Source: Dehalococcoidia bacterium
GTDB taxonomy: Bacteria; Chloroflexota; Dehalococcoidia; Lucifugimonadales; UBA1127
Direction: 5' to 3'
DNA: 64,000 nt
Assembly (NCBI GenBank): GCA_034422455.1
Contig: DAOUJQ010000013.1
Span: 98,110-162,109, forward strand
Part shown: positions 3-60,530 of the stretch, piece by piece
Position numbering within the stretch: position 1 is the stretch's first letter
How the letters are laid out: each line of letters begins with the position of its first letter
Notes under the pieces: generated by a model
Seen by the model: the letters and a program-made list of their open reading frames with translations, nothing else
Told to the model about the DNA's origin: nothing
Databases searched by the model: none
Made by a program: the position numbers and the translations under genes

Positions 3-1412
3 ATGCTGGACGACGCCCGAGAGGGCCGCTTCGACGTCATCGTCTGCTGGAAGTCCGACCGCCTGAGTCGGGGCATGTTCCCCGCCGCGGCCCTCATGGA
101 GGTAGTGGAGGCCTACCAGCTGCGCATCGAGTCGGTGATGGACGCCGTCGACATGAAGACGTTTGGGCTCATGGCCGCCATCGGGAAGATCGAGTTGGAC
201 AACTTCCGGGAGCGGGCCGCCATGGGGAAGCGGGGCGCCGCCAAGCGGGGGCGCATCGCCACCGGCCGCCCGCCCTACGGCTACCGGGTGGGCCCCGACG
301 GCAGGCCCACCGTCGACGAGAACGAGGCGGAGGTCGTCCGCCGCATCTTCCACGACTACGTGGAGCGGGGCCTCGGCATCGTGCGCATCGCTTGGGACCT
401 GACGGATGAGGGGGTGCCCACCGCCACCGGGGGGCGCACCTGGCACGAGTCGGTCGTGCACAACCTTCTGGGCAACCCCGTCTACACGGGCACCTGGGCC
501 TACGGGCGGACCCGCAACATCACCACCGACGAGGGGAAGCGGGTCTTCGCCCAACCGGCCGACACCTGGATCGGGGTGCCGGTGCCGCCCATCGTGGACG
601 AGGAGACCTTTGCGCAGGCCCAGGCGACCAAGCGGGCGCGACTCAGCCGGGCCAAGCGCAACACCAAGGTCCTCTACCTCCTTCAGCACCTGCTGCGATG
701 CGCCGAGTGCGGGCGCACGTTTCAGGCCCACTCCCGCTGGCACGCCAACTCAACCCGTCGTGGCCGTCGGGTCTCCTACGACCTGAAGGCTCCCCTCCGC
801 TACTACGCCTGCACGGGGAGCAAGCTGCGGCTCCGCTGCCGGGAGAAGCCCAGCATCAAGGCGGAGCGGCTGGAGGGTCGGGTCTGGGAGGAGGTGAAAG
901 CAGTCCTCCAAGAACCCGGCGTCATCATCGCGGGCATGGAGGCCGTGGGGCAGGGCAACCATGCGTCCCTGGCGGAGGAGCAGGCGAAGGCGGAGCGGGA
1001 CCTACGAGCAGTGCAGCGGGAGGAGGAACGGCTCGTCCGCCTCTATGTCGCCGGGAAGATCACCGAGGAGATGCTGGACCTCCAGCGCAAATTCATCACC
1101 GAGTGCCTGGAGCACCTGAGGGCCAAGGTGGACGACTACCGGGCCCGCGCCGCGACGGAGGTCACCCGCGAGCAGATGGTCGACAGCGTGCAGGCGTGGA
1201 CGGCGCGAGTGGGCGCCGGGCTGGACGCGCTGACCGAGGAGGAGAAGCGCGACGTCCTCCAAGACGTGGTGGACGAGATCACGGTGGACGGGCAGAATAA
1301 CCTCGTCATCACCGTCGCCATCCCCATCGACGGAGAAGAACAAATTATCTCACCGGTAAGCCGGTATCCAGAAACCCCGCGCCCAACGGCCTCCACATAC
1401 CCGGACCCATAA
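3..1412 (+). CDS. large serine recombinase (N-terminus cut by window edge)
   Basis: Resolvase-type catalytic-domain remnant (FDVIVCWKSDRLSRG), recombinase domain (PPYGYRVG, VVRRIFHDY), Cys-rich zinc-ribbon region (CAECGRTF..YYAC) and a long coiled-coil tail. The last ~20 codons (PVSRYPETPRPTA) are read out of an R3 intergenic repeat. Confidence 0.85.
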   Translation: MLDDAREGRFDVIVCWKSDRLSRGMFPAAALMEVVEAYQLRIESVMDAVDMKTFGLMAAIGKIELDNFRERAAMGKRGAAKRGRIATGRPPYGYRVGPDGRPTVDENEAEVVRRIFHDYVERGLGIVRIAWDLTDEGVPTATGGRTWHESVVHNLLGNPVYTGTWAYGRTRNITTDEGKRVFAQPADTWIGVPVPPIVDEETFAQAQATKRARLSRAKRNTKVLYLLQHLLRCAECGRTFQAHSRWHANSTRRGRRVSYDLKAPLRYYACTGSKLRLRCREKPSIKAERLEGRVWEEVKAVLQEPGVIIAGMEAVGQGNHASLAEEQAKAERDLRAVQREEERLVRLYVAGKITEEMLDLQRKFITECLEHLRAKVDDYRARAATEVTREQMVDSVQAWTARVGAGLDALTEEEKRDVLQDVVDEITVDGQNNLVITVAIPIDGEEQIISPVSRYPETPRPTASTYPDP

Positions 1413-1470
1413 CTCGTCGTTCCTGCGAAGGCAGGAACCCAGAGGGGCGGACGGGGGCGGGGCCGATTCG
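1353..1470 (+). repeat. repeat cluster I: R3 fragment (CCGGTATCCAGAAACCCCGCGCCCAAC) plus short R2 (GTCGTTCCTGCGAAGGCAGGAACCCAGAGGGGCGG)
   Basis: Same motifs recur at 2558, 2703, 3079, 26452, 26517, 37783, 47948, 48052 and 54493. R2 forms the hairpin TTCCTGC/GCAGGAA. Confidence 0.85.
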
Positions 1471-1537
1471 CGGATTTCGCCTCTGCCCGTGGAATGTGTC
1501 AATATAGACGCAGCGACTTGCCCCGGAGAGGAAACCC

Positions 1538-2515
1538 ATGCCCCTCCTTGAAGTCAACGACCTGCGCCTGGCCTACGTCACTGACCGCGGCCTGCTCTGG
1601 GCCGTGGACGGCACGTCCTTCGCGCTGGAGCCCGGCCAGGCCCTCGGCGTCGTCGGCGAGTCCGGCAGCGGCAAGAGCAGCCTCGCCCTCGCCCTCATGC
1701 GGCTGCTGCCCCGCAACGCCCACGGGCCGGAGGGCCGCGTCCTGATGGATGGCGTCGAGGTGCTCTCCCTCGGCGAGGAGGAGTTCCGCCGCCGGTTCCG
1801 CGGCAACGTCATCTCCATGGGTTTCCAGGGCGCGATGAACTCGCTGAACCCCGTCATGCGCGTCGGCCACCAGATCGCCGAGCCGCTCCTGCTGGACGGC
1901 GGGACGAGCAAGCAGGACGCCTACGCCAGGGTCCGCGACATGCTGGAGCGCGTCGGGCTGCCTGCCGCGGTCTTCGGCCGCTACCCCCACGAGCTCAGCG
2001 GCGGCATGAAGCAGCGCGTCGTCATCGCCATGGCCCTCGTACGCGACCCCGCGCTCGTCGTGCTCGACGAGCCCACCTCGGCGCTCGACGTGAGCGTGCA
2101 GGCGCAGATCATGAACCTGCTCAAGCAGTTGAAGCGGGAACTGGGCCTCTCCCTCATCTTCATCACCCACGACCTCGCCCTCGCCAGCGACGTCTGCGAC
2201 TACATCGCCGTCGTCTACGGCGGCTGCATCGTGGAGATGGGCGGCATCGAGGAGGTACTGCTCAACCCGTCGCACCCGTACACGGAGAAGCTGCTGGCCA
2301 GCGCGCCCAAGCTCCGCGCCGGCTCCCACCCCGAGTTCATCCCCGGGGCGCCGCCGGACCTGCTGGACCTGCCGCCCGGCTGCCGCTTCAGCCCCCGCTG
2401 CAGCCACGCGATGGACCGCTGCTTCACCGACGACCCTCCAGCCTTCAACCTCAGCCCCACGCACACTGCCCGCTGCTGGCTGCGGGAAGTCACGGACAAC
2501 GAGTCCGGAGCCTGA
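1538..2515 (+). CDS. ABC transporter ATP-binding protein, oligopeptide/dipeptide (OppD/DppD-like), orphan
   Basis: Walker A GESGSGKSS, signature LSGGMKQRV, Walker B VVLDEPTSALD, C-terminal Opp-type extension (NPSHPYTEKLL..GCRFSPRC). GGAGAGG lies upstream of the ATG. No permease or binding protein is adjacent. Confidence 0.85.
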   Translation: MPLLEVNDLRLAYVTDRGLLWAVDGTSFALEPGQALGVVGESGSGKSSLALALMRLLPRNAHGPEGRVLMDGVEVLSLGEEEFRRRFRGNVISMGFQGAMNSLNPVMRVGHQIAEPLLLDGGTSKQDAYARVRDMLERVGLPAAVFGRYPHELSGGMKQRVVIAMALVRDPALVVLDEPTSALDVSVQAQIMNLLKQLKRELGLSLIFITHDLALASDVCDYIAVVYGGCIVEMGGIEEVLLNPSHPYTEKLLASAPKLRAGSHPEFIPGAPPDLLDLPPGCRFSPRCSHAMDRCFTDDPPAFNLSPTHTARCWLREVTDNESGA

Positions 2516-3345
2516 CCCCCCGTTCGCCCTGAGCCTGTCGAAGGGCCTAGCTCCCACCGTCGTTCCTGCGCAGGCAGAGCCTGTCCCCGCGTAGGCGGGG
2601 AAACCCAGAGGTGCGGGGTCGGGTGGGGCACGCCCGCCTTGGATGTCTCCTCTTGCCGCCCGCACCCGCCGTTCGCCCTGAGCCTGTCGAAGGGCGCCCC
2701 TCCCCCAACCCCCCATACCGGCGCATGCCGGTATCCAGAAGCCTCGCGCCCAACGACGCCCGCGCACCCCCTGCCACCACCCCCTCGCGCGAACGCCGTC
2801 CCCCCGCTACCCTCGCCCCATGCACCGCCACCACAACCCCGGCGCCATTTCCCCCTCCCCTCTCGTGGGGAAGGGCCCCCTTTCCGATTGCCCTGAGCCT
2901 GTCGAAGGGTCCCGCGCAGGCGGGACCCCAGAGGGGCGGGGCGCACGCCGGCCGGGATTCGTTTCCCCTCGGTGAATATTTGTGTTGTATCTGCAACGTG
3001 CCAACTCCCCTACAAAACAAAAAGCAAGACGAATCCCGGCAGCTACGCCGGACGCGGGGCGCGCCCCAACCTCCCTCCCCCATACCGGCGCATGCCGGTA
3101 TCCAGAAACCCCGCGCCCAACCACCCTCTCCGATTGCCCTGAGCTTGTCGAAGGGTCCTGCGCAGGCAGAGCCTGCCCCTGCGTAGGCAGGGGAACCCAG
3201 AGGGGCGGGGTCTGGGTGGGGCCGTTCGCCCTGAGCCTGTCGAAGGGTCGCCCTGGGCCTGTCCTGAGGCTCTCGAAGGGCCTGTCGAAGGGTCGCCCTG
3301 ACACCGTCCCGTTGCCCCCAAGCTCCATCCGCTCGTACCCTGCCC
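2516..3345 (+). repeat. repeat hub II: nested R1, R2, R3 modules and composite-element copy A
   Basis: R1 core CCGTTCGCCCTGAGCCTGTCGAAGGG at 2519, 2668 and 3220 (variants at 2881 and 3128). Long R2 at 2558 and 3155. R3 (CATACCGGCGCATGCCGGTATCCAGAA) at 2703 and 3079. There is no regular spacing. Confidence 0.9.
2765..3055 (+). repeat. composite element (CE) copy A: GC-rich 5' module, then nested R1/R2, then AT-rich 3' hairpin module
   Basis: 5' module CACCCCCTGCCAC..CGCTACCCTCGCCCCATGCACCGCCACCA. 3' module CCGGGATTCGT(2952-2962)..TTGTATCTGCAACGTGCCAAC..ACGAATCCCGG(3029-3039)CAGCTAC. Homologous to the copies at 3294, 48229, 51443 and 58368. Confidence 0.8.
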
Positions 3346-3465
3346 TGGCAGGTTGAAACGGCACGGCAAAGCAGGGATCGTTTGTAAATTTTTTCGCTTT
3401 GTAGCTGAGATTTGCCAAATCAGCTATAAAGCGAATCGCAAATCAATTCCTCTCGGCTACGCGCT
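3294..3465 (+). repeat. composite element copy D
   Basis: CGCCCTGACAC..CGCTCGTACCCTGCCC 5' module. 3' module has a 12-bp hairpin CTTTGTAGCTGA(3397-3408)/TCAGCTATAAAG(3420-3431) including one G-T (G-U) pair, with loop GATTTGCCAAA. A truncated GGGAATTGTT restart lies at 3468. Confidence 0.7.
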
Positions 3466-3575
3466 TTGGGAATTGTTTTGGACGGTCAATAGCCTCCGCC
3501 AATGGCGGAGCCCTTGAGGAGAGTAGGGCAGCAATGATGTGGGACGCGCCGCAAGCCGGGACGGGGCAGAGACTG

Positions 3576-4088
3576 CTACAGCGTCATCACCGCTTCCAGC
3601 CGGTAGCCCCGCAGCCGTTCTCTGCCGCCGAGCGCGCCCAGCTCCACCAGCAGCGACAGCCCCGCGACCTGTGCGCCGGCGCCCTCCACCATGCGGATGG
3701 CCGCGGCCAGCGTGCCCCCCGTCGCCAGCACGTCGTCGACGATGAGCACCCGCTGCCCCGGTTCCAGCCCGTCGCGGTGCATCTCGATCGTGTCGGAGCC
3801 GTATTCGAGGTCGTAGTCGACGCTCACGGTTTCGTAGGGCAGCTTGCCCGGCTTCCGCGCCGGCACGAACCCCGCGCCGAGCCGCAGCGCCACCGGCGTG
3901 CCCAGCAGGTACCCGCGCGCCTCCACGGCCAGCACCGCGTCGATGCCCGCGTCCGTCCACGGCGCCGCCATCGCGTCCACTGCCGCCGACAGCCCGGTGG
4001 CGTCCTTCAGCAAGGGGGTGATGTCCTTGAACATGATGCCCGGCTGCGGGAAGTCCGGGATGTCCCGGATGAGCTGCTTAAGGTCCAT
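3576..4088 (-). CDS. apt: adenine phosphoribosyltransferase
   Basis: [27 protein letters not shown] and PRPP-binding motif [13 protein letters not shown]. Start trimmed to ATG 4088 from the longer track ORF. Confidence 0.9.
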
Positions 4089-13668: not shown

Positions 13669-14628
13669 ATGCAGCGGTACATCATCGTCAGGCTGGCCCA
13701 AGCGGCGCTCACGCTGGTGGGCGTCAGCATTGTCGTCTTTGCGCTCTCTACACAAGTGGGTAACTCCCTGGACTACCTTCCGCCGCGGGGGGATTGTGAC
13801 AACGGTAGGTACCTTCTGCATATCACGATCTCAACTTGTGTCATCGACCCGTGGTACGTTCAGTACTTCACTTTCGTGAAGGACGCTGCCCAGGGCGATT
13901 TTGGGCCGTCCCGCAATTGGCAGGGTCCTGCTATGGGACTGGTATTGCAGTACTACCCTCAGACGCTCCAATTGGCCGCTGTGTCCATCGGCGCGTCGCT
14001 GCTCTTGGCCGTGCCTATCGGCGCGCTGTCTGCCGTGAGGAAGGGCGGCGTACTGGACAGAGTAGCAAGGCTGTTCACCATTTTGGGGCAGTCCACTCCC
14101 CCCTTCTTGGTGGGCGTTCTCCTTGTCGGGATTTTTGCCTTGCGTTTGGAGTGGCTGCCCGGGTACGGGATGGGCAGCGTCTCCCATTGGATCTTGCCGG
14201 TCATCGCACTGGCATTGTTCCCAGCGGCGCTGCTGATGCGCTTGACTCGCGTCTCCATGCTTGAGGCCCTGGACAGCAACTATGTCAAGACCGCGCGAAT
14301 CCACGGCCTGCCAGACTGGAAGGTCGTGTGGAAGCACAGTCTTGCCAACGCTGCCGCCCCGCTTCTTGCGACGTCCGGCGCCATCGTGGCCAGCCTGCTC
14401 GCAGGCGCCGTCGCTGTTGAGGTAGTGTTCGCGTGGCGCGGTGTCGGCCTGCTGGGGCTGCAGGCGGTCAACACGCACGACTACAATGTGATCTGGGCGC
14501 TGATCATGTTCGTTTCCGTGCTGGTTATCGCCGCGCACTTGCTCATCGACATCCTCCGCGCCGGCATCGACCCTCGGATCCGGCACGCGCCGCACCCCGC
14601 CATCGAGCCCGGCCCGCATCCCCTCTGA
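13669..14628 (+). CDS. ABC transporter permease, OppB/DppB-like, paralogue 1 (divergent)
   Basis: MQRYIIVRL start, EAA-loop region LDSNYVKTARIHGLPDWKVVWKHSLANAAAPLL. Body strongly diverged from paralogues 2 and 3, with a 12-aa C-terminal extension. Confidence 0.8.
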   Translation: MQRYIIVRLAQAALTLVGVSIVVFALSTQVGNSLDYLPPRGDCDNGRYLLHITISTCVIDPWYVQYFTFVKDAAQGDFGPSRNWQGPAMGLVLQYYPQTLQLAAVSIGASLLLAVPIGALSAVRKGGVLDRVARLFTILGQSTPPFLVGVLLVGIFALRLEWLPGYGMGSVSHWILPVIALALFPAALLMRLTRVSMLEALDSNYVKTARIHGLPDWKVVWKHSLANAAAPLLATSGAIVASLLAGAVAVEVVFAWRGVGLLGLQAVNTHDYNVIWALIMFVSVLVIAAHLLIDILRAGIDPRIRHAPHPAIEPGPHPL

Positions 14629-14785: not shown

Positions 14786-15706
14786 ATGCAGCGGTACATC
14801 ATCATCAGGCTGGTCCAATCGGTATTCACCCTCATCGGCGTCAGCATCATCGTCTTCTCCCTCGCCAGACTCTCCGGCAACCCCCTCGACGTGCTCCTGC
14901 CAGTGGAAGCCAGCGATGGCGACTTCAAGCGCATCAGCAAGCTCTGGGGGCTGGATGAGCCCTGGTACATCCAGTACTTCACCTTCGTGAAAAACGCCTC
15001 CCGCGGCGAGTTCGGCCCGTCCTTCAAATGGCAGGGGCGCACCGCCATGGAACTGGTGATGCACCATCTCCCCGCGACACTGCAACTGGCGGTGATCTCC
15101 ATTGGTGTTTCGGTGCTCCTGGCCGTGCCCATTGGGGTGATGTCCGCAGTGAAGAAAGGCACCTTCCTGGATACGGGCGGGAAGCTGATCGCCCTGTTGG
15201 GGCAGTCGCTTCCCTCCTTCTGGCTGGCCATCGTGCTCATTTGGATCTTCGCGGTACAGCTCGGATGGTTTCCGACGTCGGGCCGAGGCAGCTTCTCGCA
15301 CATGATTCTGCCGGCCGTGGCCCTGGGGTGGTTCTCCGTGGCGTCCTTCATGCGCCTGACCCGCTCCTCCATGCTGAATGTGATGGACAGCGAGTACATC
15401 AAGCTCGCGCGCATCAAGGGCCTGAAGGAGTGGAAGGTCGTGTGGAAGCACGGTCTGAAGAACGCGGCCATCCCGCCCCTCACGGTGTTCGGCGCCATCG
15501 TGGTCGGCCAGATGACAGGCTCCGTCACCATCGAGACGGTGTTCGCGTGGCCCGGCATCGGCCTGCTCGCGATCCAGGCGGTGAACGCGCGCGACTACCA
15601 GGTCATCCAGGCCGTGACGATGTTCATCGCCGTCCTGTTCATCGGCGTAAACCTGCTCATCGACATCCTGTACGCCTACGTCGACCCGCGCATCCGGTAC
15701 ACTTAG
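14786..15706 (+). CDS. ABC transporter permease, OppB/DppB-like, paralogue 2
   Basis: Full-length permease, MDSEYIKLARIKGLKEWKVVWKHGLKNAAIPPL. Roughly nine-tenths identical to paralogue 3 by eye. Confidence 0.9.
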   Translation: MQRYIIIRLVQSVFTLIGVSIIVFSLARLSGNPLDVLLPVEASDGDFKRISKLWGLDEPWYIQYFTFVKNASRGEFGPSFKWQGRTAMELVMHHLPATLQLAVISIGVSVLLAVPIGVMSAVKKGTFLDTGGKLIALLGQSLPSFWLAIVLIWIFAVQLGWFPTSGRGSFSHMILPAVALGWFSVASFMRLTRSSMLNVMDSEYIKLARIKGLKEWKVVWKHGLKNAAIPPLTVFGAIVVGQMTGSVTIETVFAWPGIGLLAIQAVNARDYQVIQAVTMFIAVLFIGVNLLIDILYAYVDPRIRYT

Positions 15707-16503: not shown

Positions 16504-17424
16504 ATGCAGCGATACATTATTATCAGGCTGATCCAATCGGTGTTTACGCTCATTGGCGTGAGCATCATCGTCTTCTCCCTCGCAAGGCTCTCCGGCAACC
16601 CCCTCGACGTGCTGCTCCCGGACGAAGCCGACGACGAGACGTTCATCCGCATCAGCGAGCTCTGGGGCCTCAACGATCCCTGGTACATCCAGTACTTCAC
16701 CTTTGTGCGGAATGCATCCAAGGGTGAGTTCGGTCCCTCCTTCAAGTGGCAGGGCCGCACGGCAATGGAGCTCGTGATCCTGCACCTCCCGGCGACGCTC
16801 CAGTTGGCGGTGGTCTCCATAGGCGTGTCGGTGCTCCTGGCGGTGCCCATCGGGGTGATGTCCGCCGTGAAGAAGGGCACCATATTGGATACCGTCGGGA
16901 AGTTGATCGCCCTCCTTGGGCAGTCGCTTCCCTCCTTCTGGCTGGCCATCGTGCTCATCTGGATCTTCGCGGTGCAGCTTGGGTGGTTCCCCACCTCGGG
17001 CAGGGGCGGCATCTCCAACATGATCCTGCCGGCCGTCGCCCTGGGGTGGTTCTCCGTAGCCTCCTTCATGCGCCTGACCCGCTCCTCCATGCTCAACGTC
17101 CTGGACAGCGAGTACATCAAGCTGGCCCGCATCAAGGGGCTTCCTGAGTGGAAGGTCGTCTGGAAGCACGGCCTCAAGAACGCGGCCATCCCGCCCCTCA
17201 CGGTGTTCGGCGCCATCGTGGTCGGTCAGATGACCGGCTCCGTGACCATCGAGACCGTGTTCGCCTGGCCCGGCGTCGGCCTGCTGGCGCTGCAGGCGGT
17301 GAACGCCCGCGACTACCAGGTCATCCAGGCCGTGACGATGTTCATCTCCGTGCTGTTCATCGGCATGAACCTGCTCATCGACATCCTCTACGCCTACATT
17401 GACCCGCGAATCAGGTACCAGTAA
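16504..17424 (+). CDS. ABC transporter permease, OppB/DppB-like, paralogue 3
   Basis: Same architecture as paralogue 2. GAGGAGGAA before the ATG. Confidence 0.9.
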   Translation: MQRYIIIRLIQSVFTLIGVSIIVFSLARLSGNPLDVLLPDEADDETFIRISELWGLNDPWYIQYFTFVRNASKGEFGPSFKWQGRTAMELVILHLPATLQLAVVSIGVSVLLAVPIGVMSAVKKGTILDTVGKLIALLGQSLPSFWLAIVLIWIFAVQLGWFPTSGRGGISNMILPAVALGWFSVASFMRLTRSSMLNVLDSEYIKLARIKGLPEWKVVWKHGLKNAAIPPLTVFGAIVVGQMTGSVTIETVFAWPGVGLLALQAVNARDYQVIQAVTMFISVLFIGMNLLIDILYAYIDPRIRYQ

Positions 17425-38440: not shown

Positions 38441-38507
38441 CGACCGTTCGCCCTGAGCCTGTCCTGAGGCTCTCGAAGGGCTTGTCGAAGGGTCTCACGA
38501 ACGGTCG
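38441..38507 (+). repeat. R1 repeat with internal duplication
   Basis: CGACCGTTCGCCCTGAGCCTGTCCTGAGGCTCTCGAAGGGCTTGTCGAAGGGTCTCACGAACGGTCG. A 10-bp outer stem. Supplies the last codons and stop of the gene at 38495..39187. Confidence 0.9.
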
Positions 38508-39210: not shown

Positions 39211-39263
39211 GCCCAATCCGTTCGCCCTGAGGCTCTCGAAGGGGTTAAAGAACGGATTGGGCT
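39211..39263 (+). repeat. R1 repeat insertion flanked by a 19-nt direct duplication
   Basis: GCCCAATCCGTTCGCCCTGAGGCTCTCGAAGGGGTTAAAGAACGGATTGGGC (13-bp outer stem). CTCATGCGCGCCACCATGC occurs at 39171-39189 and again at 39284-39302. Confidence 0.9.
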
Positions 39264-39284: not shown

Positions 39285-40160
39285 TCATGCGCGCCACCAT
39301 GCCGCTGTCTCACGCTCCAGCGCGGCGAGGTCCGGGTACTCGCGCTCCACGCGTGCGACGTACTCCTCCGCTTCCGTCTCCGTGGGCGCAAGGTCCACGG
39401 TCGGCGCCGCTAGGACGTACACCGAGCGCGTCGAGGGCGGGAGCACGACGTCCACCGACAGCGCCTCCCAGTTGCGGTGGGCCAGGGCCGCCGAGAAGAC
39501 GGCAACGTACAGCTCCGGATCGTATCCCACCTCGACCGGCGCGGGGCCGTCATGCTCCACCGCCAACCCCGTTGCCGCCGCAAGCAGCTCACCCCACAGG
39601 ACCCGGAGCACGCCGGGCACGGCGTCGGCGCGCTCCCGCTCGTGGCGAGGCCGGTCGGTGGTAGCCGCCCGCGCGCTCTCGATCGCCTGCCGGACGGCGA
39701 CCGTCGGCACGGGCAGCAGGAACGCCGTATCGCCGGAGCTGAGGACGGACTCCGCGCCGTCGTCAGCCGGTCTGGCCAGCTCCACGAACCGATGCCCGAT
39801 GAGCGGCGTCTCGCCCACGAGGATGTCTCTCCCGCCGTCGTGCTCAGCGGCCCACGTTGCGACGGCGTCCCGAGCCCACAGCCCGGCGGCCCTGCGCAGC
39901 ACGGGATGCGTGATGCCGTCCGCCTCCGGGTAGCGCACCAGCAGCGAGGGGGCATCGAAGGGCCGCCGCGCGACGTCCCACTGCAACACGTACACCCGCC
40001 GGCCGAGGCGGTGCGCCTCCTCCGCCAGCTCCCGCAGTAACAGGCTCTTGCCCACCCCTGGCAGGCCGGCCACGAACACCATCCGGTGGCTCGCCGCGAA
40101 CGACCGCAACCTGACGAGGTGCGGGGCGTCAAGGGGATCGGTGGCGTTGGCGTCCGTCAT
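39285..40160 (-). CDS. hypothetical P-loop NTPase
   Basis: Walker A GLPGVGKS near the N-terminus. No further family assignment. Confidence 0.6.
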   Translation of the reverse strand: MTDANATDPLDAPHLVRLRSFAASHRMVFVAGLPGVGKSLLLRELAEEAHRLGRRVYVLQWDVARRPFDAPSLLVRYPEADGITHPVLRRAAGLWARDAVATWAAEHDGGRDILVGETPLIGHRFVELARPADDGAESVLSSGDTAFLLPVPTVAVRQAIESARAATTDRPRHERERADAVPGVLRVLWGELLAAATGLAVEHDGPAPVEVGYDPELYVAVFSAALAHRNWEALSVDVVLPPSTRSVYVLAAPTVDLAPTETEAEEYVARVEREYPDLAALERETAAWWRA

Positions 40161-47939: not shown

Positions 47940-48605
47940 CATCCCCGAATCGTCATTCCCGCGAAAGCGGGAATCCAGAGGTGTGGTGCTGAGAGGGCCG
48001 TTCGTCCTGAGGGAAATCGAAGGACGAACCGGGGGGCGCCCCATCCCCACCCCCTCATACCGGCGCATGCCGGTATCCAGAAACCCCGCGCCCAACGGCC
48101 CCTTCCGATTGCCCTGAGCTTGTCGAAGGGTCCTGCGCAGGCAGAGCCTGTCCCCGCGTAGGCGGGGAAACCCAGAGGGGCGGGGAAGGGAGGGGGAACC
48201 CCCACCGCGCGACAGGCAGAAGAACCATCACCCCCTGCCACTACCCCCTCGCGCGAACGCCATCCCGCCCGCTACCCTCGCCCCATGCACCGCCACCAAA
48301 ACAGCACAACCGCCCTGCTTATCGCCCCGCGAAGGGCCGGGAATTGTTCCCCCCTGATGAAAAAATTTTTGTCTTGTATCTACAACGTGCCAACTCAGCT
48401 TCAACACGAAAAACAAAACAATTCCCTGCAGCTACGCCGGACGCGGAAAAACTCTGCCCCGCACACCCGCCTACCCCAACCCCTCATACCGGCGAATGGT
48501 CACTCCGTACCCCGATACGGGGTTGGGATGGGGGTCGTAGGGGCGACCCTTGTGGTCGCCCTCCCGTTCGCCCTGAGCCTGTCGAAGGGTCAGCCGAACG
48601 GCGGC
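47940..48605 (+). repeat. repeat hub V (R2 variants, R1 variants, R3 x2, CE copy B)
   Basis: GTCATTCCCGCGAAAGCGGGAATCCAGAGG (47951), R3 at 48052 and 48481, R1 variant at 48092, long R2 at 48130, R1 at 48563 abutting the modC stop. Confidence 0.9.
48229..48445 (+). repeat. composite element copy B
   Basis: CACCCCCTGCCAC..CGCTACCCTCGCCCCATGCACCGCCACCA, then GGGAATTGTT(48329-48338)..TTGTATCTACAACGTGCCAAC..AACAATTCCC(48417-48426)TGCAGCTAC. Confidence 0.8.
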
Positions 48606-49697
48606 CTACCCCAGCACCACCACGCTGCTGGCCTTCAGCACCAGGCTCACCTCCACGCCGGGCCGCAGCTCCAACGAGGACGCCGCCTCTGGCGTCAGCG
48701 CAGCCAGCACCGTCGCTCCCGCGTCCGCCGACACCAGCACGCTGTCGCCTACCCGGTCGACCGCCGTCACCGTTGCCCGCAGCACGTTGCGCGCGCTCAG
48801 GCCGTGCGGCGGCTCCGCGGCAACCATCACGTCCGACGCCGGCACCACCACGGCGATCTCCTCGCGCACCTGCCGGTCCACAGCCGGCAGCCAGAGCGTG
48901 AAGCCGGAGAAGCTCGCCTCCGTCAGCCCGCTCTCCGGGTGCTGCGCCACCACACGGCCCTCCAGCAGCGTCTCCATGTGCGCCGGCTCCAGCAGCGGCA
49001 GCACCGCCTCCTGGTGCAGCACCCTGCCCGGCGCGTCCATCGCGACCTGCTCGCCGTTCGAGAGCACCAGCGCCTGCTCCGCGATCGCCGCCACCTCCGA
49101 CAGCGCGTGCGATACGTAGACCATCGGGATGCCGGTCTCCCTGTGTACGGCCCGCAGCCGCCGCAGGATCCGCCCCCGCGCCGGCATGTCGAGCGACGCA
49201 AGCGGCTCGTCCAGCAGCAGCACCTCCGGCGACGCCGCCAGCGCGCGGGCCAGCGCGACCCGCTGCCGCTCCCCGCCCGAGAGGGTGCCCGGCATGCGGT
49301 GCAGTAGGTGCTCCACGTCCAGCAGCTGGACGAGCTGGTTCGGCTGCAGGTACCGCCGGTGCTTTGGCGTGTGGTTCCAGCCGAACAGGATGTTCTCGCG
49401 GACGCGCAGGTGCGGAAAGAGGAGGCCCTCCTGGTGCACGTACCCCACCCGCCGCTTGTCCGGCGGCCGGTTCACCGGCAGGAACCGCCCCTCTGTCGAA
49501 AAGAGCGTGCGGTCCCAGAGCTGCACCGTGCCCGAGTCCGGCCGCGCCGTCCCCGCGATGCAGTTGAGCGTCGTGCTCTTCCCGCTCCCGGACGGCCCGA
49601 AGACTGCCGTGACGCCCGCGGTGAACGTGACGTCCAGGTCGAGCGCAAAGTCCGGGTAGGTCTTGCGGAAGTGGAGTTCCAGGAATGGCTCGCCCAT
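48606..49697 (-). CDS. modC: molybdate ABC transporter ATP-binding protein
   Basis: GPSGSGKST, LSGGERQRV, LLLDEPLASLD, C-terminal TOBE-like domain. ATG 49697 lies 2 nt after the modB stop. Confidence 0.9.
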   Translation of the reverse strand: MGEPFLELHFRKTYPDFALDLDVTFTAGVTAVFGPSGSGKSTTLNCIAGTARPDSGTVQLWDRTLFSTEGRFLPVNRPPDKRRVGYVHQEGLLFPHLRVRENILFGWNHTPKHRRYLQPNQLVQLLDVEHLLHRMPGTLSGGERQRVALARALAASPEVLLLDEPLASLDMPARGRILRRLRAVHRETGIPMVYVSHALSEVAAIAEQALVLSNGEQVAMDAPGRVLHQEAVLPLLEPAHMETLLEGRVVAQHPESGLTEASFSGFTLWLPAVDRQVREEIAVVVPASDVMVAAEPPHGLSARNVLRATVTAVDRVGDSVLVSADAGATVLAALTPEAASSLELRPGVEVSLVLKASSVVVLG

Positions 49698-49699
49698 GG

Positions 49700-50454: not shown

Positions 50455-50581
50455 CATCCGTTCGCCCTGAGCCTGTCGAAGGGGGTTACACGAACGGATA
50501 GGGTGCCACTTGGAGCGGGCTGCGGCCTGCGCTCCCGTCCGTTCGCCCTGAGCCTGTCGAAGGGCGCCGCACGAACGGACC
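50455..50581 (+). repeat. two R1 repeats inside the modA-modB intergenic gap
   Basis: ATCCGTTCG..CGAACGGAT (50456-50499) and GTCCGTTCG..CGAACGGAC (50537-50580). GCTGCGGCCTG is repeated at 50411 and 50519. Confidence 0.9.
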
Positions 50582-50598: not shown

Positions 50599-51375
50599 CT
50601 ACGGCGTCGTGAACCCGTGCGACCGGAACACGGCCAGCGCCTCCTCCGTGCTCAGGAAGGCCAGGAAGGCCGCCGCCCCGTCCGGGTTGTCCGCCTCCTC
50701 CAACGCCGCGACGGGGTACACGACCGGCGGATGGCTCCCCTCCGGGAAGGGCCACAGCACGCGAACGCCGGCGGCGCCGTCCGCGTCGGTGGCGTACACG
50801 ACGGCGGCGTCGGCCGCGCCGGAGGCCGCGTACTGCAGCGCCGTGCGCACGTCGGGCCCGTACAGCAGCTTGGACTGCAGATCCTCCCACAGTCCCAGCT
50901 CTTCCAACGCTCCCTGCGCATACTCCCCCGCCGGGGCCAGCGCGGGGTCGGCCATCGCCACGCGCGTCACGCGGTCGCCCAGCAGGTCCTCCGGCCCCCC
51001 GATCTCCACGCCGCCGCTTGGGCCGACCAGCACGAGCGCGTTCCCCAGCAGGTCGGTCCGGCTCTCCCCGACCACGTGCCGCGCTGACGCCAGGTGGTCC
51101 ATCGGCCCGTCGCCCGCTGCGAAGAAGACGTCGGCCGGCGCGCCCCGCACGATCTGCTGAGCCAGCGTCCGCGACCCGCCGAAGCTGAACCGCACCGCCG
51201 TGCCGTGCTCCTCCTCGAATCGCTCTCCGACGGACTCGAGCGCGTCCGACAGGCTCGCCGCCGCGAAGACCGTGAGCGTCGCGGGCGCATCGCCCCCGCC
51301 GCACGCCGACGCGGCGGCCGCCAGCGTCAGCGAGACGGCCAAGAGGGCGGCAAAAAGTGTCGACTTTGCTCGCAT
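50599..51375 (-). CDS. modA: molybdate ABC transporter substrate-binding lipoprotein
   Basis: Signal/lipobox LTLAAAASAC, then TLTVFAAASLSDAL..FSFGGS..ADVFFAA. Start trimmed to ATG 51375. Confidence 0.9.
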   Translation of the reverse strand: MRAKSTLFAALLAVSLTLAAAASACGGGDAPATLTVFAAASLSDALESVGERFEEEHGTAVRFSFGGSRTLAQQIVRGAPADVFFAAGDGPMDHLASARHVVGESRTDLLGNALVLVGPSGGVEIGGPEDLLGDRVTRVAMADPALAPAGEYAQGALEELGLWEDLQSKLLYGPDVRTALQYAASGAADAAVVYATDADGAAGVRVLWPFPEGSHPPVVYPVAALEEADNPDGAAAFLAFLSTEEALAVFRSHGFTTP

Positions 51376-51442: not shown

Positions 51443-51640
51443 CGCACCCTGACACCTGCGTATTGCCCGTGCGCGGCGACCGCCGGTAACCTCGCTTCAT
51501 GGGCATCGCAACAAGGAATCCGACCGGGCGTTCAGCAGAGGGATTCGTTTCCGCAACGTGCGTTTTCGTCTTGTAGCTGAAATGTGCCACGGTAGCTACG
51601 ATCACGAATGAGAAAACGAACTCCCGCAGCTACAGGGGGC
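51443..51640 (+). repeat. composite element copy C
   Basis: CGCACCCTGACAC..CCGGTAACCTCGCTTCATGGGCATCGCAACAA, then GGGATTCGTTT(51540-51550)..CTTGTAGCTGAAATGTGCCACGGTAGCTAC..AAACGAACTCCC GCAGCTACA. Confidence 0.75.
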
Positions 51641-51764: not shown

Positions 51765-54464
51765 ATGACCAGCCAGAGCTACCACGCCGGGGCCCGCGCA
51801 ACCCTGAGCACGCCCCAGGGCGACAGGGTCTACTACAGCCTGCCCTACCTGGAGCAGCAGGGCCTCACCAACCTGGACCGGCTCCCCTACACCATCCGCA
51901 TCCTGCTGGAGAACGCCCTCCGCAGCGTCGACGGCTACCTGGTCGAGGAGGAGGACGTCGCCGCCGTGGCGAGCTGGCGGCCCGACGCGCCGCCCGAGCG
52001 GACGTTCCCCTTCATGCTGGCCCGCGTCCTCATGCAGGACCTCACCGGCATCCCCGCCCTCGTCGACCTGGCCGCCATGCGCAACGCCATGGCCCGGCTG
52101 GGCGGCGACCCGCAGAAGATCAACCCGCTCATCCCCTGCGACCTGGTCATCGACCACTCCGTGCAGGTCGACTACTTCGGCTCCCCGCTGGCCCTGCAGC
52201 GCAACGTGGAGCGCGAGTTCGAGCGCAACCAGGAGCGGTACAGCTTCCTCAGGTGGGCGCAGAACGCCTTCAAGAACTTCCGGCTCGTGCCCCCCGGCGC
52301 GGGCATCGTCCACCAGGTCAACCTGGAGTACCTGGCCGACGTGGTCACGACGCGGGAGACCTCCGACGGCCTCACCATCTTCCCGGACACGGTCATCGGC
52401 ACGGACTCCCACACCACCATGATCAACGGCCTCGGCGTCCTCGGCTGGGGCGTCGGCGGCATCGAGGCGGAGGCCGTCCTGCTCGGCCAGCCCTACTACA
52501 TGCAGGTCCCGGAGGTCATCGGCGTCAAGCTCAGCGGCACCCTGCGCGAGGGCGTGACCACCACGGACATGGTGCTGACGCTCACGCAGATGCTGCGGGC
52601 GCGCGGCGTCGTCGAGAAGTTCGTCGAGTTCTTCGGCCCCGGCCTCTCCAACATCCCGCTCGCCGACCGCGCCACCGTCGCCAACATGTCGCCCGAGTAC
52701 GGCGCGACGTGCGGCTACTTCCCCATCGACGCCTACACCCTCGACTACCTCCGCGGCACCGGCCGCGACGAGGCGCAGGTGCAGCTCGTCGAGGCCTACG
52801 CCAAGGCGCAGGGCCTCTTCCGCACCGACGACTCGCCGGATCCGGAGTATACGGACGTCCTCTACCTGGACCTCGGCGACGTCGAGTCCAGCCTCTCCGG
52901 GCCACGCCGCCCCCACGATCGGGTGTCCCTCGGCGAGATGAAGAGCAGCTTCCGCGGGGCATTCCCCGTCCAGACCGCCGAGGCCAACGGCAACATCCCG
53001 CTGACCGGCGAGGCCGACATAGACGGCGAGACCCACAAGATCGGCCACGGCTCCGTCGTCATAGCCGCCATCACCAGCTGCACCAACACCTCCAACCCGT
53101 CCGTCATCATCGGCGCCGGGCTGCTGGCCAAGAAGGCCGTCGAGAAGGGCCTGTCGGCCAAGCCGTGGGTGAAGACGAGCCTTGCCCCCGGCTCCCAGGT
53201 CGTCACAGACTATCTTGCCGCCGCCGGACTGACGCCGTCGCTGGAGGCGCTGGGCTTCCACACCGTCGGCTACGGCTGCACCACCTGCATCGGGAACAGC
53301 GGGCCGGTCCCGCAGCCGATAGCGACCGCGACCGAGGACAACGACCTCGTCGCCGTCTCCGTGCTCAGTGGCAACCGGAACTTTGAGGGGCGCATCCACC
53401 CCTTGGTGAAGGCCAACTACCTTGCGTCTCCCGTGCTCGTGGTGGCCTACGCCCTCGCCGGCACGGTGGACCTCGACATGACGAGCGACCCCATCGGCGA
53501 GGGCGCCGACGGGCAGCCCGTCTACCTGCGCGACATCTGGCCCTCGCAGTCGGAGATCCAGGAGACCATCGCGCAGTCGCTCAACCCGGAGATGTTCCGC
53601 GAGCGCTACGCCGCCGTCTCCGAGGGCTCCGACGCCTGGAAGGCCGTGCCCGCGCCCACCGGCGACCTGTTCGAGTGGAACGAGGACTCCACGTACATCC
53701 GCGAGGCCCCCTACTTCTTGGGCCTGCAGATGGACGTGGAGGAGCCGCAGGACATCCGCGGCGCCCGCGTGCTGGCCGTGCTGGGCGACTCCATCACGAC
53801 CGACCACATCTCGCCCGCGGGCGCAATCCCCGCCGACCGGCCCGCGGGGAGGTACCTACTCGACAAGGGCGTGGAGCCGGTCGACTTCAACATCTACGGC
53901 TCCCGTCGCGGCAACCACGAGGTGATGGTGCGCGGCACCTTCGGCAACATCCGCCTCCGCAACCGCCTCACGCCGGAGATGGAGGGTGACTGGTCGATCT
54001 ACCTGCCCGATGAGAACGTCACCAGCATCTTCGAGGCGTCCCAGCAGTACATCGAGGCGGGCATCCCGACCGTCATCATCGCCGGCAAGGAGTACGGCTC
54101 CGGCAGCTCCCGCGACTGGGCGGCCAAGGGCCCCAACCTCCTCGGCGTGCAGGCCGTCGTGGCGGAGAGCTACGAGCGCATCCACCGCAACAACCTCGTC
54201 GGCATGGGCGTCATGCCCCTGCAGTTCAAGCCCGGCGAGAACGCCGACACCCTCGGCCTGACCGGCCGCGAGACCTTCGAGGTCGTCGGCATCTCCGAGG
54301 GGATCACGCCCGGCCAGACGGTGCAGGTGCACGCCGTCAAGGAGGACGGCGCCCGGCTGGCCTTCGACGCCACCCTCCGCATCGACAACAACGTGGAGAC
54401 CGACTACTACAAGCAGGGCGGCGTCCTGCACACCGTCCTGCGCAGGCTGCTGCGGGAGGGCTAA
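51765..54464 (+). CDS. acnA: aconitate hydratase A
   Basis: ~900 aa. YYSLP..LPYTIRILLEN, DSHTTM, cluster ligands ITSCTNTSNP and GCTTCIGNSG, GSSRDWAAKG. Confidence 0.95.
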   Translation: MTSQSYHAGARATLSTPQGDRVYYSLPYLEQQGLTNLDRLPYTIRILLENALRSVDGYLVEEEDVAAVASWRPDAPPERTFPFMLARVLMQDLTGIPALVDLAAMRNAMARLGGDPQKINPLIPCDLVIDHSVQVDYFGSPLALQRNVEREFERNQERYSFLRWAQNAFKNFRLVPPGAGIVHQVNLEYLADVVTTRETSDGLTIFPDTVIGTDSHTTMINGLGVLGWGVGGIEAEAVLLGQPYYMQVPEVIGVKLSGTLREGVTTTDMVLTLTQMLRARGVVEKFVEFFGPGLSNIPLADRATVANMSPEYGATCGYFPIDAYTLDYLRGTGRDEAQVQLVEAYAKAQGLFRTDDSPDPEYTDVLYLDLGDVESSLSGPRRPHDRVSLGEMKSSFRGAFPVQTAEANGNIPLTGEADIDGETHKIGHGSVVIAAITSCTNTSNPSVIIGAGLLAKKAVEKGLSAKPWVKTSLAPGSQVVTDYLAAAGLTPSLEALGFHTVGYGCTTCIGNSGPVPQPIATATEDNDLVAVSVLSGNRNFEGRIHPLVKANYLASPVLVVAYALAGTVDLDMTSDPIGEGADGQPVYLRDIWPSQSEIQETIAQSLNPEMFRERYAAVSEGSDAWKAVPAPTGDLFEWNEDSTYIREAPYFLGLQMDVEEPQDIRGARVLAVLGDSITTDHISPAGAIPADRPAGRYLLDKGVEPVDFNIYGSRRGNHEVMVRGTFGNIRLRNRLTPEMEGDWSIYLPDENVTSIFEASQQYIEAGIPTVIIAGKEYGSGSSRDWAAKGPNLLGVQAVVAESYERIHRNNLVGMGVMPLQFKPGENADTLGLTGRETFEVVGISEGITPGQTVQVHAVKEDGARLAFDATLRIDNNVETDYYKQGGVLHTVLRRLLREG

Positions 54465-54479: not shown

Positions 54480-54650
54480 GCCAGCCCCGAGCCGTCGTTC
54501 CTGCGTAGGCAGAGCCTGCCCCTGCGAAGGCAGGGGAACCCAGAGGGGCGGGGTGCGGCGGGGGCTGTTCGTGCTGAGTTCCGTCCGAATACAAACACAC
54601 GTCCGTTCGCCCTGAGCCCGTCGAAGGGCGCCTTACGAATGGACTCGCAG
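54480..54650 (+). repeat. repeat cluster VII (long R2, R1-like, R1)
   Basis: GTCGTTCCTGCGTAGGCAGAGCCTGCCCCTGCGAAGGCAGGGGAACCCAGAGGGGCGGGG; GTCCGTTCGCCCTGAGCCCGTCGAAGGGCGCCTTACGAATGGAC. Confidence 0.9.
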
Positions 54651-58367: not shown

Positions 58368-58740
58368 CCCACCCTGACACGGCTCCATTGCGCCGGCGCA
58401 GCGCCGCCCGCTACGCTCCCCCCATGCAAAGCCACAGCAATGCCCTCAACAGAGCTTCGAGGCCGCCGATGAAAACACCGGCGACGCGGCCTCCGGCCCA
58501 GTCGCGCGTTGTCAGGCCGGAGAAAATTGGGACTCGTTTCCTCTATTGCAGAATTCGTTCTGTAGCTGAGACGTGCCATTCCGGATACAAAACGAAGACC
58601 AAACGAGACCTCCCTCAGCCTTGGAACTCGTTTCTGCAAATTTGCAAATTTTGGTTTTGTAGCTGAGACATGCCTTTCCGGATACAAAACGAAGACCAGA
58701 CGGGACCTCCCTCAGCTACAACAAACGACGAAACGAGTTA
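58368..58740 (+). repeat. composite element copy E with tandemly duplicated 3' module
   Basis: CCCACCCTGACAC..CGCTACGCTCCCCCCATGCAAAGCCACAGCAA, then two 3' units. The 59-nt core TGTAGCTGAGAC(G/A)TGCC..CCTCCCTCAGC occurs at 58561-58619 and 58658-58716. 11-bp stem TTGTAGCTGAG/CTCAGCTACAA (58657-58667 / 58711-58721). Confidence 0.8.
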
Positions 58741-59285: not shown

Positions 59286-59707
59286 CGCCGGTCCGTCACG
59301 ATCAGGAGCACGCCGGCCATGACGGTCAGCCCTCCCAGAATGAGCCACACGTTGATCTGCTCGTTCAGGAACAGGATCGCCAGCACAAGTGCGGGGACCG
59401 GCGAGGCCGAGACGACGGGGACCGACCGGCTGAGCCCGATGCGGCTGATGCTTGAGTAGTTCAGGAACCTGCCGAGGAGAAAGTTGGACATGCCGTAGAA
59501 GAATATGGTGACCAGGGCGCCCAGCGTCATGGTGGTCAGGGCTTCCCAATGCAGTACAAAGGACAGCGGTATGAGCAGGAGGAGGCCGCTGAAGAGGGAA
59601 AAGACGGCGCTGGTGGTCGGCCGCATGTCCCGGAGCGCCAGGCGGATCCAAACGTTGCCCATGCCCCACACCGTGGAGGCCCCCAGGGCAAAGAGGATGC
59701 CGGTCAT
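59282..59707 (-). CDS. EamA-domain (DMT superfamily) half-transporter, N-terminal-type half
   Basis: 141 aa, a single EamA-like unit (ILFALGASTVWGMGNV..). ATGA overlap with the purQ stop. Confidence 0.65.
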   Translation of the reverse strand: MTGILFALGASTVWGMGNVWIRLALRDMRPTTSAVFSLFSGLLLLIPLSFVLHWEALTTMTLGALVTIFFYGMSNFLLGRFLNYSSISRIGLSRSVPVVSASPVPALVLAILFLNEQINVWLILGGLTVMAGVLLIVTDRR

Positions 59708-60399
59708 ACGGTGGACCGCTCACCCAGGATGGAGTGGAAGATGCGCAGGCCGTCCGTCCCGCCCAGCAGCGCGGACGACGCCCGCTCAGGGTGCGGCATC
59801 ATCCCCAGCACGTTGCCCCGCCTGTTGACGATCCCCGCAATGTTGTTGAAGGAGCCGTTGGGGTTGGCCTCCGCCGTCGGCACTCCCTCGGCGTTGGCGT
59901 ACCGGAAGACCACCTGGCTGTTGATCTCCAGGTCCCTCAGCTCGCGGGGCGACGCATAGTAGCGGCCCTCGCCGTGCGAGACCGGCATGCCGAGGGCGTC
60001 GCCAACGTGGCAGGCGCTGGTGAACGGCGTGTCCGCGTTCTCGACGCGCAGGTGCGTCCACTCGCACCGGAACTCCAGGTGGTCGTTGCGCAGCAGCGCG
60101 CCGGGCAGCAGCCCCGCCTCGCAGAGGATCTGGAAGCCGTTGCAGCTCCCCAGCACCAGCCCGCCCCGCTCGGCGTAGGTCGCCACCGACTCCATGACGG
60201 GCGAGAGGCTGGCGATTGCGCCGGTGCGGAGGTAGTCGCCGTAGGCGAAGCCGCCGGGCAGCACGACGCAGTCAAAGCCGCTCAGGTCGCGCTCCTTGTG
60301 CCACACGTAGCGTACGTCCTGCTCCAGCGACTCGCCCAACGCGACGCCGAAGTCGCGGTCGCTCCACGTGCCGGGGAAGACCACCACGCCGAATCTCAT
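59704..60399 (-). CDS. purQ: phosphoribosylformylglycinamidine synthase, glutaminase subunit
   Basis: MRFGVVVFPG, LPGGFAYGDYLR, catalytic GSCNGFQIL, MMPHPER. Start trimmed to ATG 60399. Confidence 0.9.
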   Translation of the reverse strand: MRFGVVVFPGTWSDRDFGVALGESLEQDVRYVWHKERDLSGFDCVVLPGGFAYGDYLRTGAIASLSPVMESVATYAERGGLVLGSCNGFQILCEAGLLPGALLRNDHLEFRCEWTHLRVENADTPFTSACHVGDALGMPVSHGEGRYYASPRELRDLEINSQVVFRYANAEGVPTAEANPNGSFNNIAGIVNRRGNVLGMMPHPERASSALLGGTDGLRIFHSILGERSTV

Positions 60400-60427
60400 G
60401 CGCGCTCCGTCCTGCTTACGCCGCCTC

Positions 60428-60530
60428 TTCTTCCCGGCGAAAGCCGGGATCCAGGGGCGGGGCGTCTCTCCCGCATCCGCTCGCCCTGAGCTCCGTCGTA
60501 GGGTCGCCCTGAGCTTGTCGAAGGGCCTCC
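60428..60530 (+). repeat. repeat cluster VIII (R2-like plus degenerate R1 x2)
   Basis: CTTCCCGGCGAAAGCCGGGATCCAGGGGCGGGG; CGCTCGCCCTGAGCTCCGTCGTAGGGTCGCCCTGAGCTTGTCGAAGGG. Confidence 0.8.

Follow-up and report, generated by a model that had tools for sequence, protein, structure and literature searches.

CGTC-1 REPs, which include the Neisseria dRS3 repeat, are extragenic hairpins with a CGTC, CCTC or TGTC tag, an 8-bp stem, a 4-nucleotide (nt) loop and a CCA tail; they prefer convergent and unidirectional gaps and have no dedicated transposase (Di Nocera, De Gregorio and Rocco 2013, PMC3733652). Few bacterial repeats are as widespread as the CGTC-type REPs (dRS3, NTS, SRM). A single enzyme has been tied to them, Ssn, which was described in 2025 without a link to replication. 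This GIY-YIG nuclease of about 94 amino acids (aa) cuts solely single-stranded DNA (ssDNA) and solely the NTS strand, upstream of the hairpin; the activity has been shown for Neisseria SsnA, and inverted repeats typically lie on both sides of its gene (Chenal et al. 2025, PMC11893778). Neither paper refers to leading and lagging strands or to skew. Here we describe families of hairpin repeats in a 64,000-nt stretch of the genome of a Dehalococcoidia bacterium (GCA_034422455.1, hereafter G000; contig C13, positions 98110-162109; the window), where nearly all copies point the same way. Throughout the genome this near-absolute polarity follows the strand asymmetry of the chromosome and is independent of transcription.

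The repeats comprise three hairpin families, R1, R2 and R3, together with a fourth module, D10. R2 starts with CGTCGTTCC or CGTCATTCC, an unpaired 5' tag of the CGTC type, and R3 has CCTC, CCCC or CTTC before its stem. Folded as DNA, R2 forms a 7-8-bp stem with the loop GAAG and R3 an 8-bp stem with the loop GCAT, and the tails that follow are CCCAGAG and CCAGAA. A:T pairs occupy the first two stem positions in R3 (ATACCGGC) and in a copy at 47951 of the window (ATTCCCGC), although the commonest R2 begins GTTCCTGC, unlike the A:T stem start of CGTC-1. The SRM consensus HGTCWYN(0-2)YYVSBRHN(0-5)WNVSBRGN(0-2)RNCYNB has 29 strict matches in G000 and 34 in a congener with a closed chromosome (G006), exact NTS cores among them. 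The main R2 consensus misses it, by eye with G for W after CGTC as the sole mismatch, and R1 and R3 do not match it. We conclude that R2 and R3 are REP hairpins of the CGTC-1 type, known as NTS/SRM in work on Ssn. A second family of hairpins, R1, accompanies them, forms an 11-bp stem closed by the loop GAGCYTGTCGA and has a small GIY-YIG partner of its own; no paper turned up when the literature was searched for the core of R1 or for its pseudo-peptides. D10 (TTGTAGCTGARAYRTGCC...) is AT-richer, travels with R1, R2 and R3, contains the palindrome GTAGCTG...CAGCTAC and looks like a promoter or small RNA. Its 105 copies in G000, against only 2 in G006, indicate a recent lineage-specific expansion.

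Pattern searches that allowed up to 3 mismatches, with a chance expectation of at most 0.1 matches, found 13 forward and one reverse R1 copies in the window, together with nine R2 and four R3 copies, all forward. With nhmmer and profiles made from the genome-wide copies, the counts rose to 18 forward and one reverse for R1, 13 forward for R2 and five forward for R3, plus one partial R3; since long R2 units match twice, the 13 R2 matches correspond to about 10-11 elements. All six D10 copies are also forward. In total, about 42 of 43 copies, and about 13 of 14 separate loci, are co-oriented. The original prediction, made from the window's letters, had counted at least 17 R1, 11 R2 and 6 R3 copies, in agreement with the profile searches, and rightly saw the six copies of its 'composite' 3' module as co-oriented. 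It had, however, placed every copy in one orientation and found no convincing reverse copy, which was wrong by one, the R1 at 31729-31754.

This uniformity does not depend on the genes nearby. Genes were called with a codon-usage model, and ten in the window were checked with Pfam. Repeat loci follow plus-strand genes (FAD oxidase, 25025-26440; rhodanese, 36923-37630; aconitase, 51765-54464) and lie after or between minus-strand genes (HhH-GPD/endonuclease III-like, 38495-39187; ABC+TOBE/modC-like, 48606-49697; SBP (modA-like), 50599-51342), and they also fill convergent, tandem and divergent gaps. The earlier claim that orientation is independent of gene direction was thus borne out, and a fit per locus over the whole genome, described below, agrees with it.

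Over the whole of G000 (23 contigs, 2.33 Mb, 94.9% complete, 66% G+C) the two orientations are close to 50:50 in each family (R1 168/148, R2 90/92, R3 33/36), yet single contigs are one-sided, for example C3 (1/26), C16 (2/28) and C17 (17/0). Orientation was opposite to the sign of the 30-kb skew for 517 of the 567 copies, and 500 of 556 agreed when skew was calculated from confident coding sequence only, with the repeats masked. We also grouped copies into loci and compared each locus with the third-codon-position skew of its twelve flanking genes, taken in either orientation. Only 4 of the 285 loci were mixed, and the 281 pure loci followed the skew in 256 cases (91%, p=2e-49). In other words, at 256 of 281 loci the C-rich strand is the one on which the original prediction had spelled the repeats, which includes the CGTC-hairpin strand; we refer to it as the written strand. 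Every family conformed (with and against the rule: R1 193:24, R2 127:12, R3 53:4, CGTC hairpin 120:16, D10 62:12 loci), and loci with only CGTC hairpins (12 of 14) were as polar as those with only R1 (13 of 13). The chromosome of G006, a single contig of 2,734,736 bp that was examined whole, gave the same coupling, with 156 of 189 loci in agreement and none mixed. Further afield, the flanks of the R1 strand are C-rich at 13 of 15 loci in G031, a closed genome from another family of the order, and at 9 of 15 in G040. The suggestion that orientation flips with GC skew at origin and terminus therefore held as regards skew, but the number of flips did not fit it: the closed chromosome has 35 orientation runs, well beyond one origin and one terminus.

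Could transcription set the orientation, with the repeats acting as terminators or as RNA elements of 3' untranslated regions? Most copies (525 of 567 in G000) lie outside called genes, and gene 3' ends are favoured, with 142 copies in convergent gaps and 48 in divergent ones; in the window, copies lie between stop codons and terminators. Nevertheless, one chromosomal orientation follows both plus and minus genes, and neighbouring genes lie on either strand (in the repeat's own frame, 94 ++, 69 --, 57 +- and 43 -+). In the logistic fit per locus the sign of the skew had a coefficient of -2.5, as against 0.3-0.4 for the strands of the flanking genes, and an Rfam search of the window matched no family. 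We therefore consider a transcriptional origin of the polarity extremely unlikely. Unequal stability of the hairpins formed by the two strands was likewise rejected, the folds being equivalent.

The skew itself is a property of the chromosome strand. Skew of plus genes and of minus genes correlates across bins in G000 (r=0.74). Genes whose sense strand is the written strand have a third-position (GC3) skew of -0.22, and other genes of about 0. In both G000 and G006 codon positions 1 and 2 are unchanged; because only third positions differ, the asymmetry is one of synonymous sites on the chromosome strand, independent of transcription. The combination of a clear third-position skew with a 51%/49% balance of coding strands, seen in both genomes, is unusual for a bacterium. 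Comparison of genomes showed which changes are responsible. In the block around the aconitase gene, the branch between G000 and five congeners carries 178 G>C and 43 C>G differences on the repeat strand, a count made with no outgroup, so that its direction is not fixed; the other complementary pairs of substitutions are symmetric, and in the lineage of G005 the ratio is reversed, 112 to 26. Genome-wide, G>C exceeded C>G next to lineage-specific loci (13628 vs 10066; 3969 vs 2971) and in regions of opposite polarity (7610 vs 4839), but not in the control regions, which are repeat-free in both genomes (5512 vs 5666). The skew is thus produced by asymmetric G:C<->C:G substitution. The skew peaks (-0.27) within 1 kb of a locus and falls to zero with increasing distance.

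The repeats turn over rapidly. The contigs of G000 are nearly collinear with G006 (41 blocks, 2.1 Mb, about 80% identity), and the skew of aligned segments correlates (r=0.70). At most window loci G006 has an empty site, a gap of 8-37 nt where that of G000 measures 190-1090 nt, and two gaps common to both genomes contain the same families in reverse orientation. Around the aconitase gene, five congeners have positive skew and either no repeats or one reversed copy, and G000 has negative skew and eight forward copies. Most window copies are therefore lineage-specific insertions between a stop codon and its terminator, absent from the congeners, and turnover is fast.

Against this background we considered a passive history, in which tandem duplication and shared descent, with inversions shuffling the blocks, produce the pattern without any process that depends on orientation. 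Some observations are of the expected kind. Tandem arrays occur, such as an 81-nt pair at 50457-50575 of the window and arrays in G006 with periods of 39 and 95 nt, and sites common to the two genomes have mostly kept their orientation (100 kept, 19 changed). An inversion between G009 and G006 flips both skew and R1 orientation; since the two move together, inversions contribute to the polarity mosaic. However, independent insertions in about 280 separate gaps match the local skew in 91% of cases, the same gaps are filled in opposite orientation in two genomes with each fitting its own skew, four families unrelated in sequence share the polarity, and new copies in the window share one orientation although they are specific to the lineage. 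Passive history is already strained by these data, and we regard it as distinctly unlikely. Import of repeat-bearing segments from divergent donors was rejected, as divergence is not raised near loci. The breakpoint of the inversion lies at about 66.9-67.4 kb in G006 and at 65 kb and 122 kb in G009, and the inverted segment has only 2 R1 copies in G009 and 22 matches in G006 (R1, R2 and CGTC hairpins, of which 16 are R1). The long tandem R1 arrays of G006, of 11 and 6 copies for the 39-nt and 95-nt periods, located at 76933-77342 and at 3478-3969 of segment L001, show local amplification by slippage or unequal exchange.

The individual loci of the window illustrate both the uniform orientation and the lineage-specific gain. 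Unless stated otherwise, the copies described here are forward. Near the left end, an R3 (1345-1390) and an R2 CGTC hairpin (1412-1450) occupy a tandem gap between plus genes (1345-1452; nhmmer E=5e-12 and 1e-13). In the window's first gene (3-1412) the open frame passes through this R3 and stops at 1412; because the frame crosses the repeat, either its C-terminus is repeat-encoded or the true stop is obscured. A large mosaic array, found by pattern and profile searches, fills the convergent gap at 2519-3304 with six R1 (2519, 2669, 2883, 3129, 3222 and 3280), four R2, two R3 (2708 and 3076) and, at 2977-3021, a D10 module; in G006 the gap at the syntenic position measures 37 nt. The profile search placed another D10 module (TTGTAGCTGAGATTTGCC...) at 3391-3435. 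Between 13513 and 17424 the window also contains three tandem paralogous genes of about 310 codons (13669-14628, 14786-15706 and 16504-17424), which share blocks of 270-300 nt that are 65-85% identical. After the FAD-oxidase gene, R3, R2 and a degenerate R1 (26445-26603) lie in a convergent gap, and the matching gap in G006 has the same families in the opposite orientation. The sole reversed R1, also degenerate (31729-31754, minus; E=3e-5), is directly 3' of the stop codon of a plus gene (29703-31718). Since the orthologous copy in G006 has the same orientation relative to the genes, this one is probably a relic of an earlier polarity.

In the right half of the window, a weak R1-like match (34799-34829; E=0.0026) is an uncertain member of the family. 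Three R2 and three R1 form an array 3' of the plus rhodanese gene (37780-38490), and a single R1 (39217-39244) lies between two minus genes, HhH-GPD and 39285-40160. A second mosaic array fills a convergent gap at 47950-48601 (pattern and profile searches). It opens with a canonical hairpin of the NTS/SRM type, CGTCATTCCCGCGAAAGCGGGAATCCAGAGG (47951), which is one of the 29 strict SRM matches, and continues with an R1-variant hairpin, R3, R1, a long R2, D10 (48366-48410), a partial R3 (48474-48498) and R1 (48563), where G006 has a syntenic gap of 8 nt. The 81-nt tandem duplication mentioned above comprises two R1 between the minus modC-like and modA-like genes. A D10 module (51563-51607) occupies the divergent gap upstream of aconitase, and a long R2 and an R1 (54490-54632) lie between the aconitase stop codon and its terminator hairpin, a site that is empty (19 nt) in G006 and has no repeat match in G001, G002, G005 and G009. 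Finally, two D10 modules 97 nt apart (58552-58693) and a CGTC-like hairpin (CTTCTTCCCGGCGAAAGCCGGGATCCAGGGGCGGGG) with an R1 (60431-60534) each lie between minus genes; at the latter site G006 has a reversed CGTC hairpin.

What enzyme might act on these repeats? The original prediction invoked mobilisation of the REP/RAYT or IS200/IS605 type by a Y1 (HUH) transposase on one replication template, and suggested a search for a Y1/RAYT gene flanked by inverted R-type repeats. In those systems orientation is biased relative to replication because just one strand is active, as ssDNA (Ton-Hoang et al. 2012, PMC3333891; Gomez et al. 2014, PMC3971601), with single-strand transposition the subject of Ton-Hoang et al. 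2010 as cited by these two papers. The bias relative to skew that we observe is of the kind reported for IS200/IS605 (PMC3971601, PMC3333891). However, the Y1 transposase domain PF01797 had no match at E<=0.1 in G000 and G006, and none at E<=0.01 in the 13 genomes of the genus (G000 and 12 congeners, five of the latter in one or two contigs), with positive controls. There was no GTAG tag and no inverted REPIN doublet, only 4 of 285 loci were mixed, and CGTC REPs reportedly have no transposase dedicated to them (PMC3733652). We accordingly give very little credence to a Y1 mechanism on the lagging-strand template. A gene flanked in the predicted manner does exist, but it encodes a 98-aa GIY-YIG nuclease.

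This open reading frame (C13:55201-55494; PF01541, E=7.8e-17) lies 43 kb upstream of the window (window coordinate about -42900), between the last minus R1 of the contig (49990) and the first plus R1 (57433), where polarity and skew switch. It is bracketed by an inverted pair of an R1-variant hairpin that has 74 copies in G000: CCGTTCGTCCTGAGGGAAATCGAAGGATGAACGG 64 nt upstream in forward orientation and its complement 69 nt downstream in reverse. The locus thus has a small single-domain GIY-YIG gene with inverted copies of a genome-wide hairpin on both sides, as in an Ssn system. G006 has a 96-aa GIY-YIG frame (166444-166734) inside an R1-variant array, and in G008 and G012 the bracket is seen on the sides available. 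The orthologue in G012 (C67:18734-22027) has one in-frame TAG and may be a pseudogene or a recoding event. A second GIY-YIG type, a classic Ssn-like gene (YIGVTSNL...REKALKKWNR), in G009 (C1:2709005-2712232), has two forward CGTC hairpins upstream and three reverse ones downstream; its frame continues through the downstream repeats for 310 codons, so that its stop may be lost or the gene damaged. The 98-aa protein had no NCBIfam match; its identity to the Ssn-like proteins from G003 and G009 is 38-41%. Congeners without a strong small GIY-YIG gene, G007, G010 and G011, have 2, 6 and 1 R1 copies; G004, a fragmented assembly, is an exception.

These observations are compatible with a model in which the polarity arises from strand-specific, single-strand processing of hairpins at replication forks. 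The strand asymmetry would be the leading/lagging asymmetry of replication, with the C-rich strand as the leading-strand template. As regards the assignment of strands, the locally G-rich strand is the one that carries the 23S rRNA gene, dnaA and, in the ribosomal-protein region, rplB. We infer from this that G-richness marks the leading strand and that the template of the leading strand is the written one; skew is zero in the region of rpoC. If hairpins were handled solely as single strands and on one strand only, as demonstrated for NTS and Ssn, the two orientations would not be equivalent at a fork. Copies would then be able to insert or persist only if the processed strand is not on the lagging template, which stays single-stranded for a long time. 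Segmental inversions, by carrying skew and repeats together, could generate many polarity domains, and after each inversion slow re-equilibration would follow, with old copies lost, new ones gained in the new orientation and G<->C drift biased. We give this model an even chance and no more, because fork direction is inferred and the local effects described below are unexplained.

Several results weigh against it. On the closed chromosome the 35 orientation runs (about 82 for shuffled labels) are accompanied by 18 sign changes of the skew. The best partition into two replichores accounts for 80% of the G006 loci, as against 83% by local skew, and when G000 is placed on the G006 frame a two-arc partition accounts for 74%, as against 91%. 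The dnaA gene of G006 is not at a skew switch, and scanning for AT-rich windows and for DnaA boxes of the E. coli type revealed no cluster resembling an origin. Genes show no strand bias relative to the skew (0.51 vs 0.49). The window is one of several regions where G006 has the same gene order but the reverse skew and the reverse repeat orientation, and the borders of the window's polarity domain have no long inverted repeats, only short R-type matches. Isolated loci sit in a symmetric well of skew, -0.11 within 1.5 kb and about 0 by 8-12 kb in both genomes, and of two orthologous genes only the one in the genome with the locus is skewed (-0.04 vs 0.00); a plain replichore model predicts neither the well nor the locus-dependent skew. 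On the enzymatic side, the best solved relatives of the 98-aa protein are the UPF0213 proteins 1zg2 and 1ywl, and it is a candidate member of the Ssn family cd10448, and the nuclease type associated with CGTC hairpins was not detected in G000 or G006 despite more than 160 CGTC hairpins.

Some related observations on chromosome organisation may be noted here. Flip-flop inversion of the window domain through long inverted repeats at its borders was considered and rejected, none having been found. The cumulative skew of G006 has its deepest minimum near 120 kb, adjoining rplB, and dnaA (2.16 Mb), mutS (2.155 Mb) and a 23S gene (2.234 Mb) belong to a separate, strongly positive domain that begins at a second upward jump near 2.08 Mb. 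Transition widths were no different between upward and downward changes, and thus gave no sign of eukaryote-style N-domains, in which sharp upward jumps contrast with gradual declines.

The local effects could be explained in a quite different way, if the repeats write the skew around them. Strand-specific nicking or gaps at the hairpins, made by an Ssn-like nuclease or left as structure-induced post-replication gaps, would cause one strand to be resynthesised repeatedly for a few kb on both sides, C:C mispairs that are poorly seen by MutS would turn G to C on that strand, and insertions that depend on single strands would land nearby in the same orientation. Domains could then nucleate, grow and flip without rearrangement or a change of fork direction, and much of the GC-skew mosaic would be written by mobile hairpins, not by the direction of forks. 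The peak of asymmetry within 1 kb of loci, the symmetric wells in both genomes, the ortholog skew that accompanies the locus, the symmetry of regions empty in both genomes and the flips of polarity with synteny kept are all in line with this. MutS is present in all 13 genomes (NucS was not found), oriented GC-rich replication risk sequences (RRS) that trigger strand-specific gaps provide a precedent (PMC10592627), and the CGTC strand, cut by Ssn in NTS, is the strand that becomes C-rich here. On the other hand, the region at 120-340 kb of G006 is strongly skewed (third-position excess skew +0.1 to +0.34) with almost no repeats, the rate of G<->C differences is not raised near loci (0.063 vs 0.060), and flank skew did not depend on the number of copies per locus. 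Moreover, CGTC-only loci are as polar as R1 loci although a CGTC-type nuclease gene is not detectable in G000 and G006, the unrelated D10 module shows the same polarity, and the gaps at RRS are one-sided and extend at most 2 kb (PMC10592627). On balance we think it fairly unlikely that the repeats write the skew.

Alternatively, the repeats might be functional polar sites of the chromosome, selected to keep one direction relative to fork movement and serving in gap triggering or topological relief, as Chi-like recombination signals or as KOPS-like translocase signals. Their polarity is indeed tied to the chromosome strand and not to genes in several unrelated families, 30 of 41 genomes from the order share a conserved 20-mer of R1, and quadruplexes could form from the G-run tails GGGGCGGGGTCTGGGTGGGG, as in the oriented RRS. 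But congeners have anything between 1 and 243 copies, and sister genomes lack most of the window loci, and so no copy is individually conserved. In addition, there are 35 orientation runs and not a single flip at a terminus, G-runs occur on both repeat strands, and, in contrast to polar words of 8 nt, the elements measure 30-100 nt and occur only in gaps between genes. We consider a selected function of this kind unlikely.

Strand-specific processing of hairpins at forks is the best supported of these models, at the even chance stated above, and the coupling of polarity to strand asymmetry has consequences of its own. It provides a testable in vivo logic for Ssn and NTS, in that a nuclease acting on one strand of ssDNA must make the two orientations unequal at a fork. 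The coupling is replicated in two genomes, and a collinear region with opposite polarity and opposite skew is a natural experiment. In a high-GC genome skew proves to be carried by G:C<->C:G changes, and its magnitude is tied to the presence of repeats in a lineage-specific manner that standard replichore models do not predict. Repeat orientation could also mark strand history in metagenome-assembled genomes that lack a readable origin. New here are the comparison with congeners, the tracing of the skew to G<->C changes, the lineage-specific coupling and the architecture of R1 with a GIY-YIG gene.

Among the described systems, Ssn/NTS offers several parallels. R2 is a one-position variant of NTS (CGTCATTCCCGCGMAVGCGGGAATCYRG), a single-domain GIY-YIG gene of about 98 aa is bracketed by inverted hairpins of a genome-wide family, the second type in G009 is bracketed by CGTC hairpins, and repeat load accompanies presence of the gene across the genus. 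In contrast to Ssn, the brackets of the G000 gene are R1-type hairpins outside the SRM consensus, and the nuclease type associated with CGTC hairpins is missing from G000 and G006; furthermore, the Ssn paper describes clusters around genes (PMC11893778), whereas the polarity here extends over the chromosome. The likeness to CGTC-1 REPs lies in the tag, stem, loop and tail of R2 and R3, in the preference for extragenic gaps and in the lack of a dedicated transposase. CGTC-1 elements are, however, mostly head-to-head inverted dimers (PMC3733652), and the units described here are single or form co-oriented mosaics, with mixed loci in 4 of 285 cases in G000 and 0 of 189 in G006. Like IS200/IS605 they are hairpin-based elements, and their orientation is strongly coupled to GC3 skew, in 35 runs on the closed chromosome; unlike IS200/IS605 and REP/RAYT they have no Y1 transposase in 13 genomes, CGTC or CCTC tags in place of GTAG, no REPIN doublets and a GIY-YIG partner. 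The RRS of E. coli are, like them, GC-rich structured intergenic elements; they comprise two conserved copies at a defined position, with gaps on one strand that depend on fork orientation (PMC10592627), as opposed to hundreds of copies with fast turnover here. Finally, KOPS, Chi and AIMS resemble these repeats in having an orientation tied to the chromosome strand and not to genes, but they are 8-mers inside genes with a single flip at dif, whereas the repeats described here are extragenic modules of 30-100 nt with dozens of flips.

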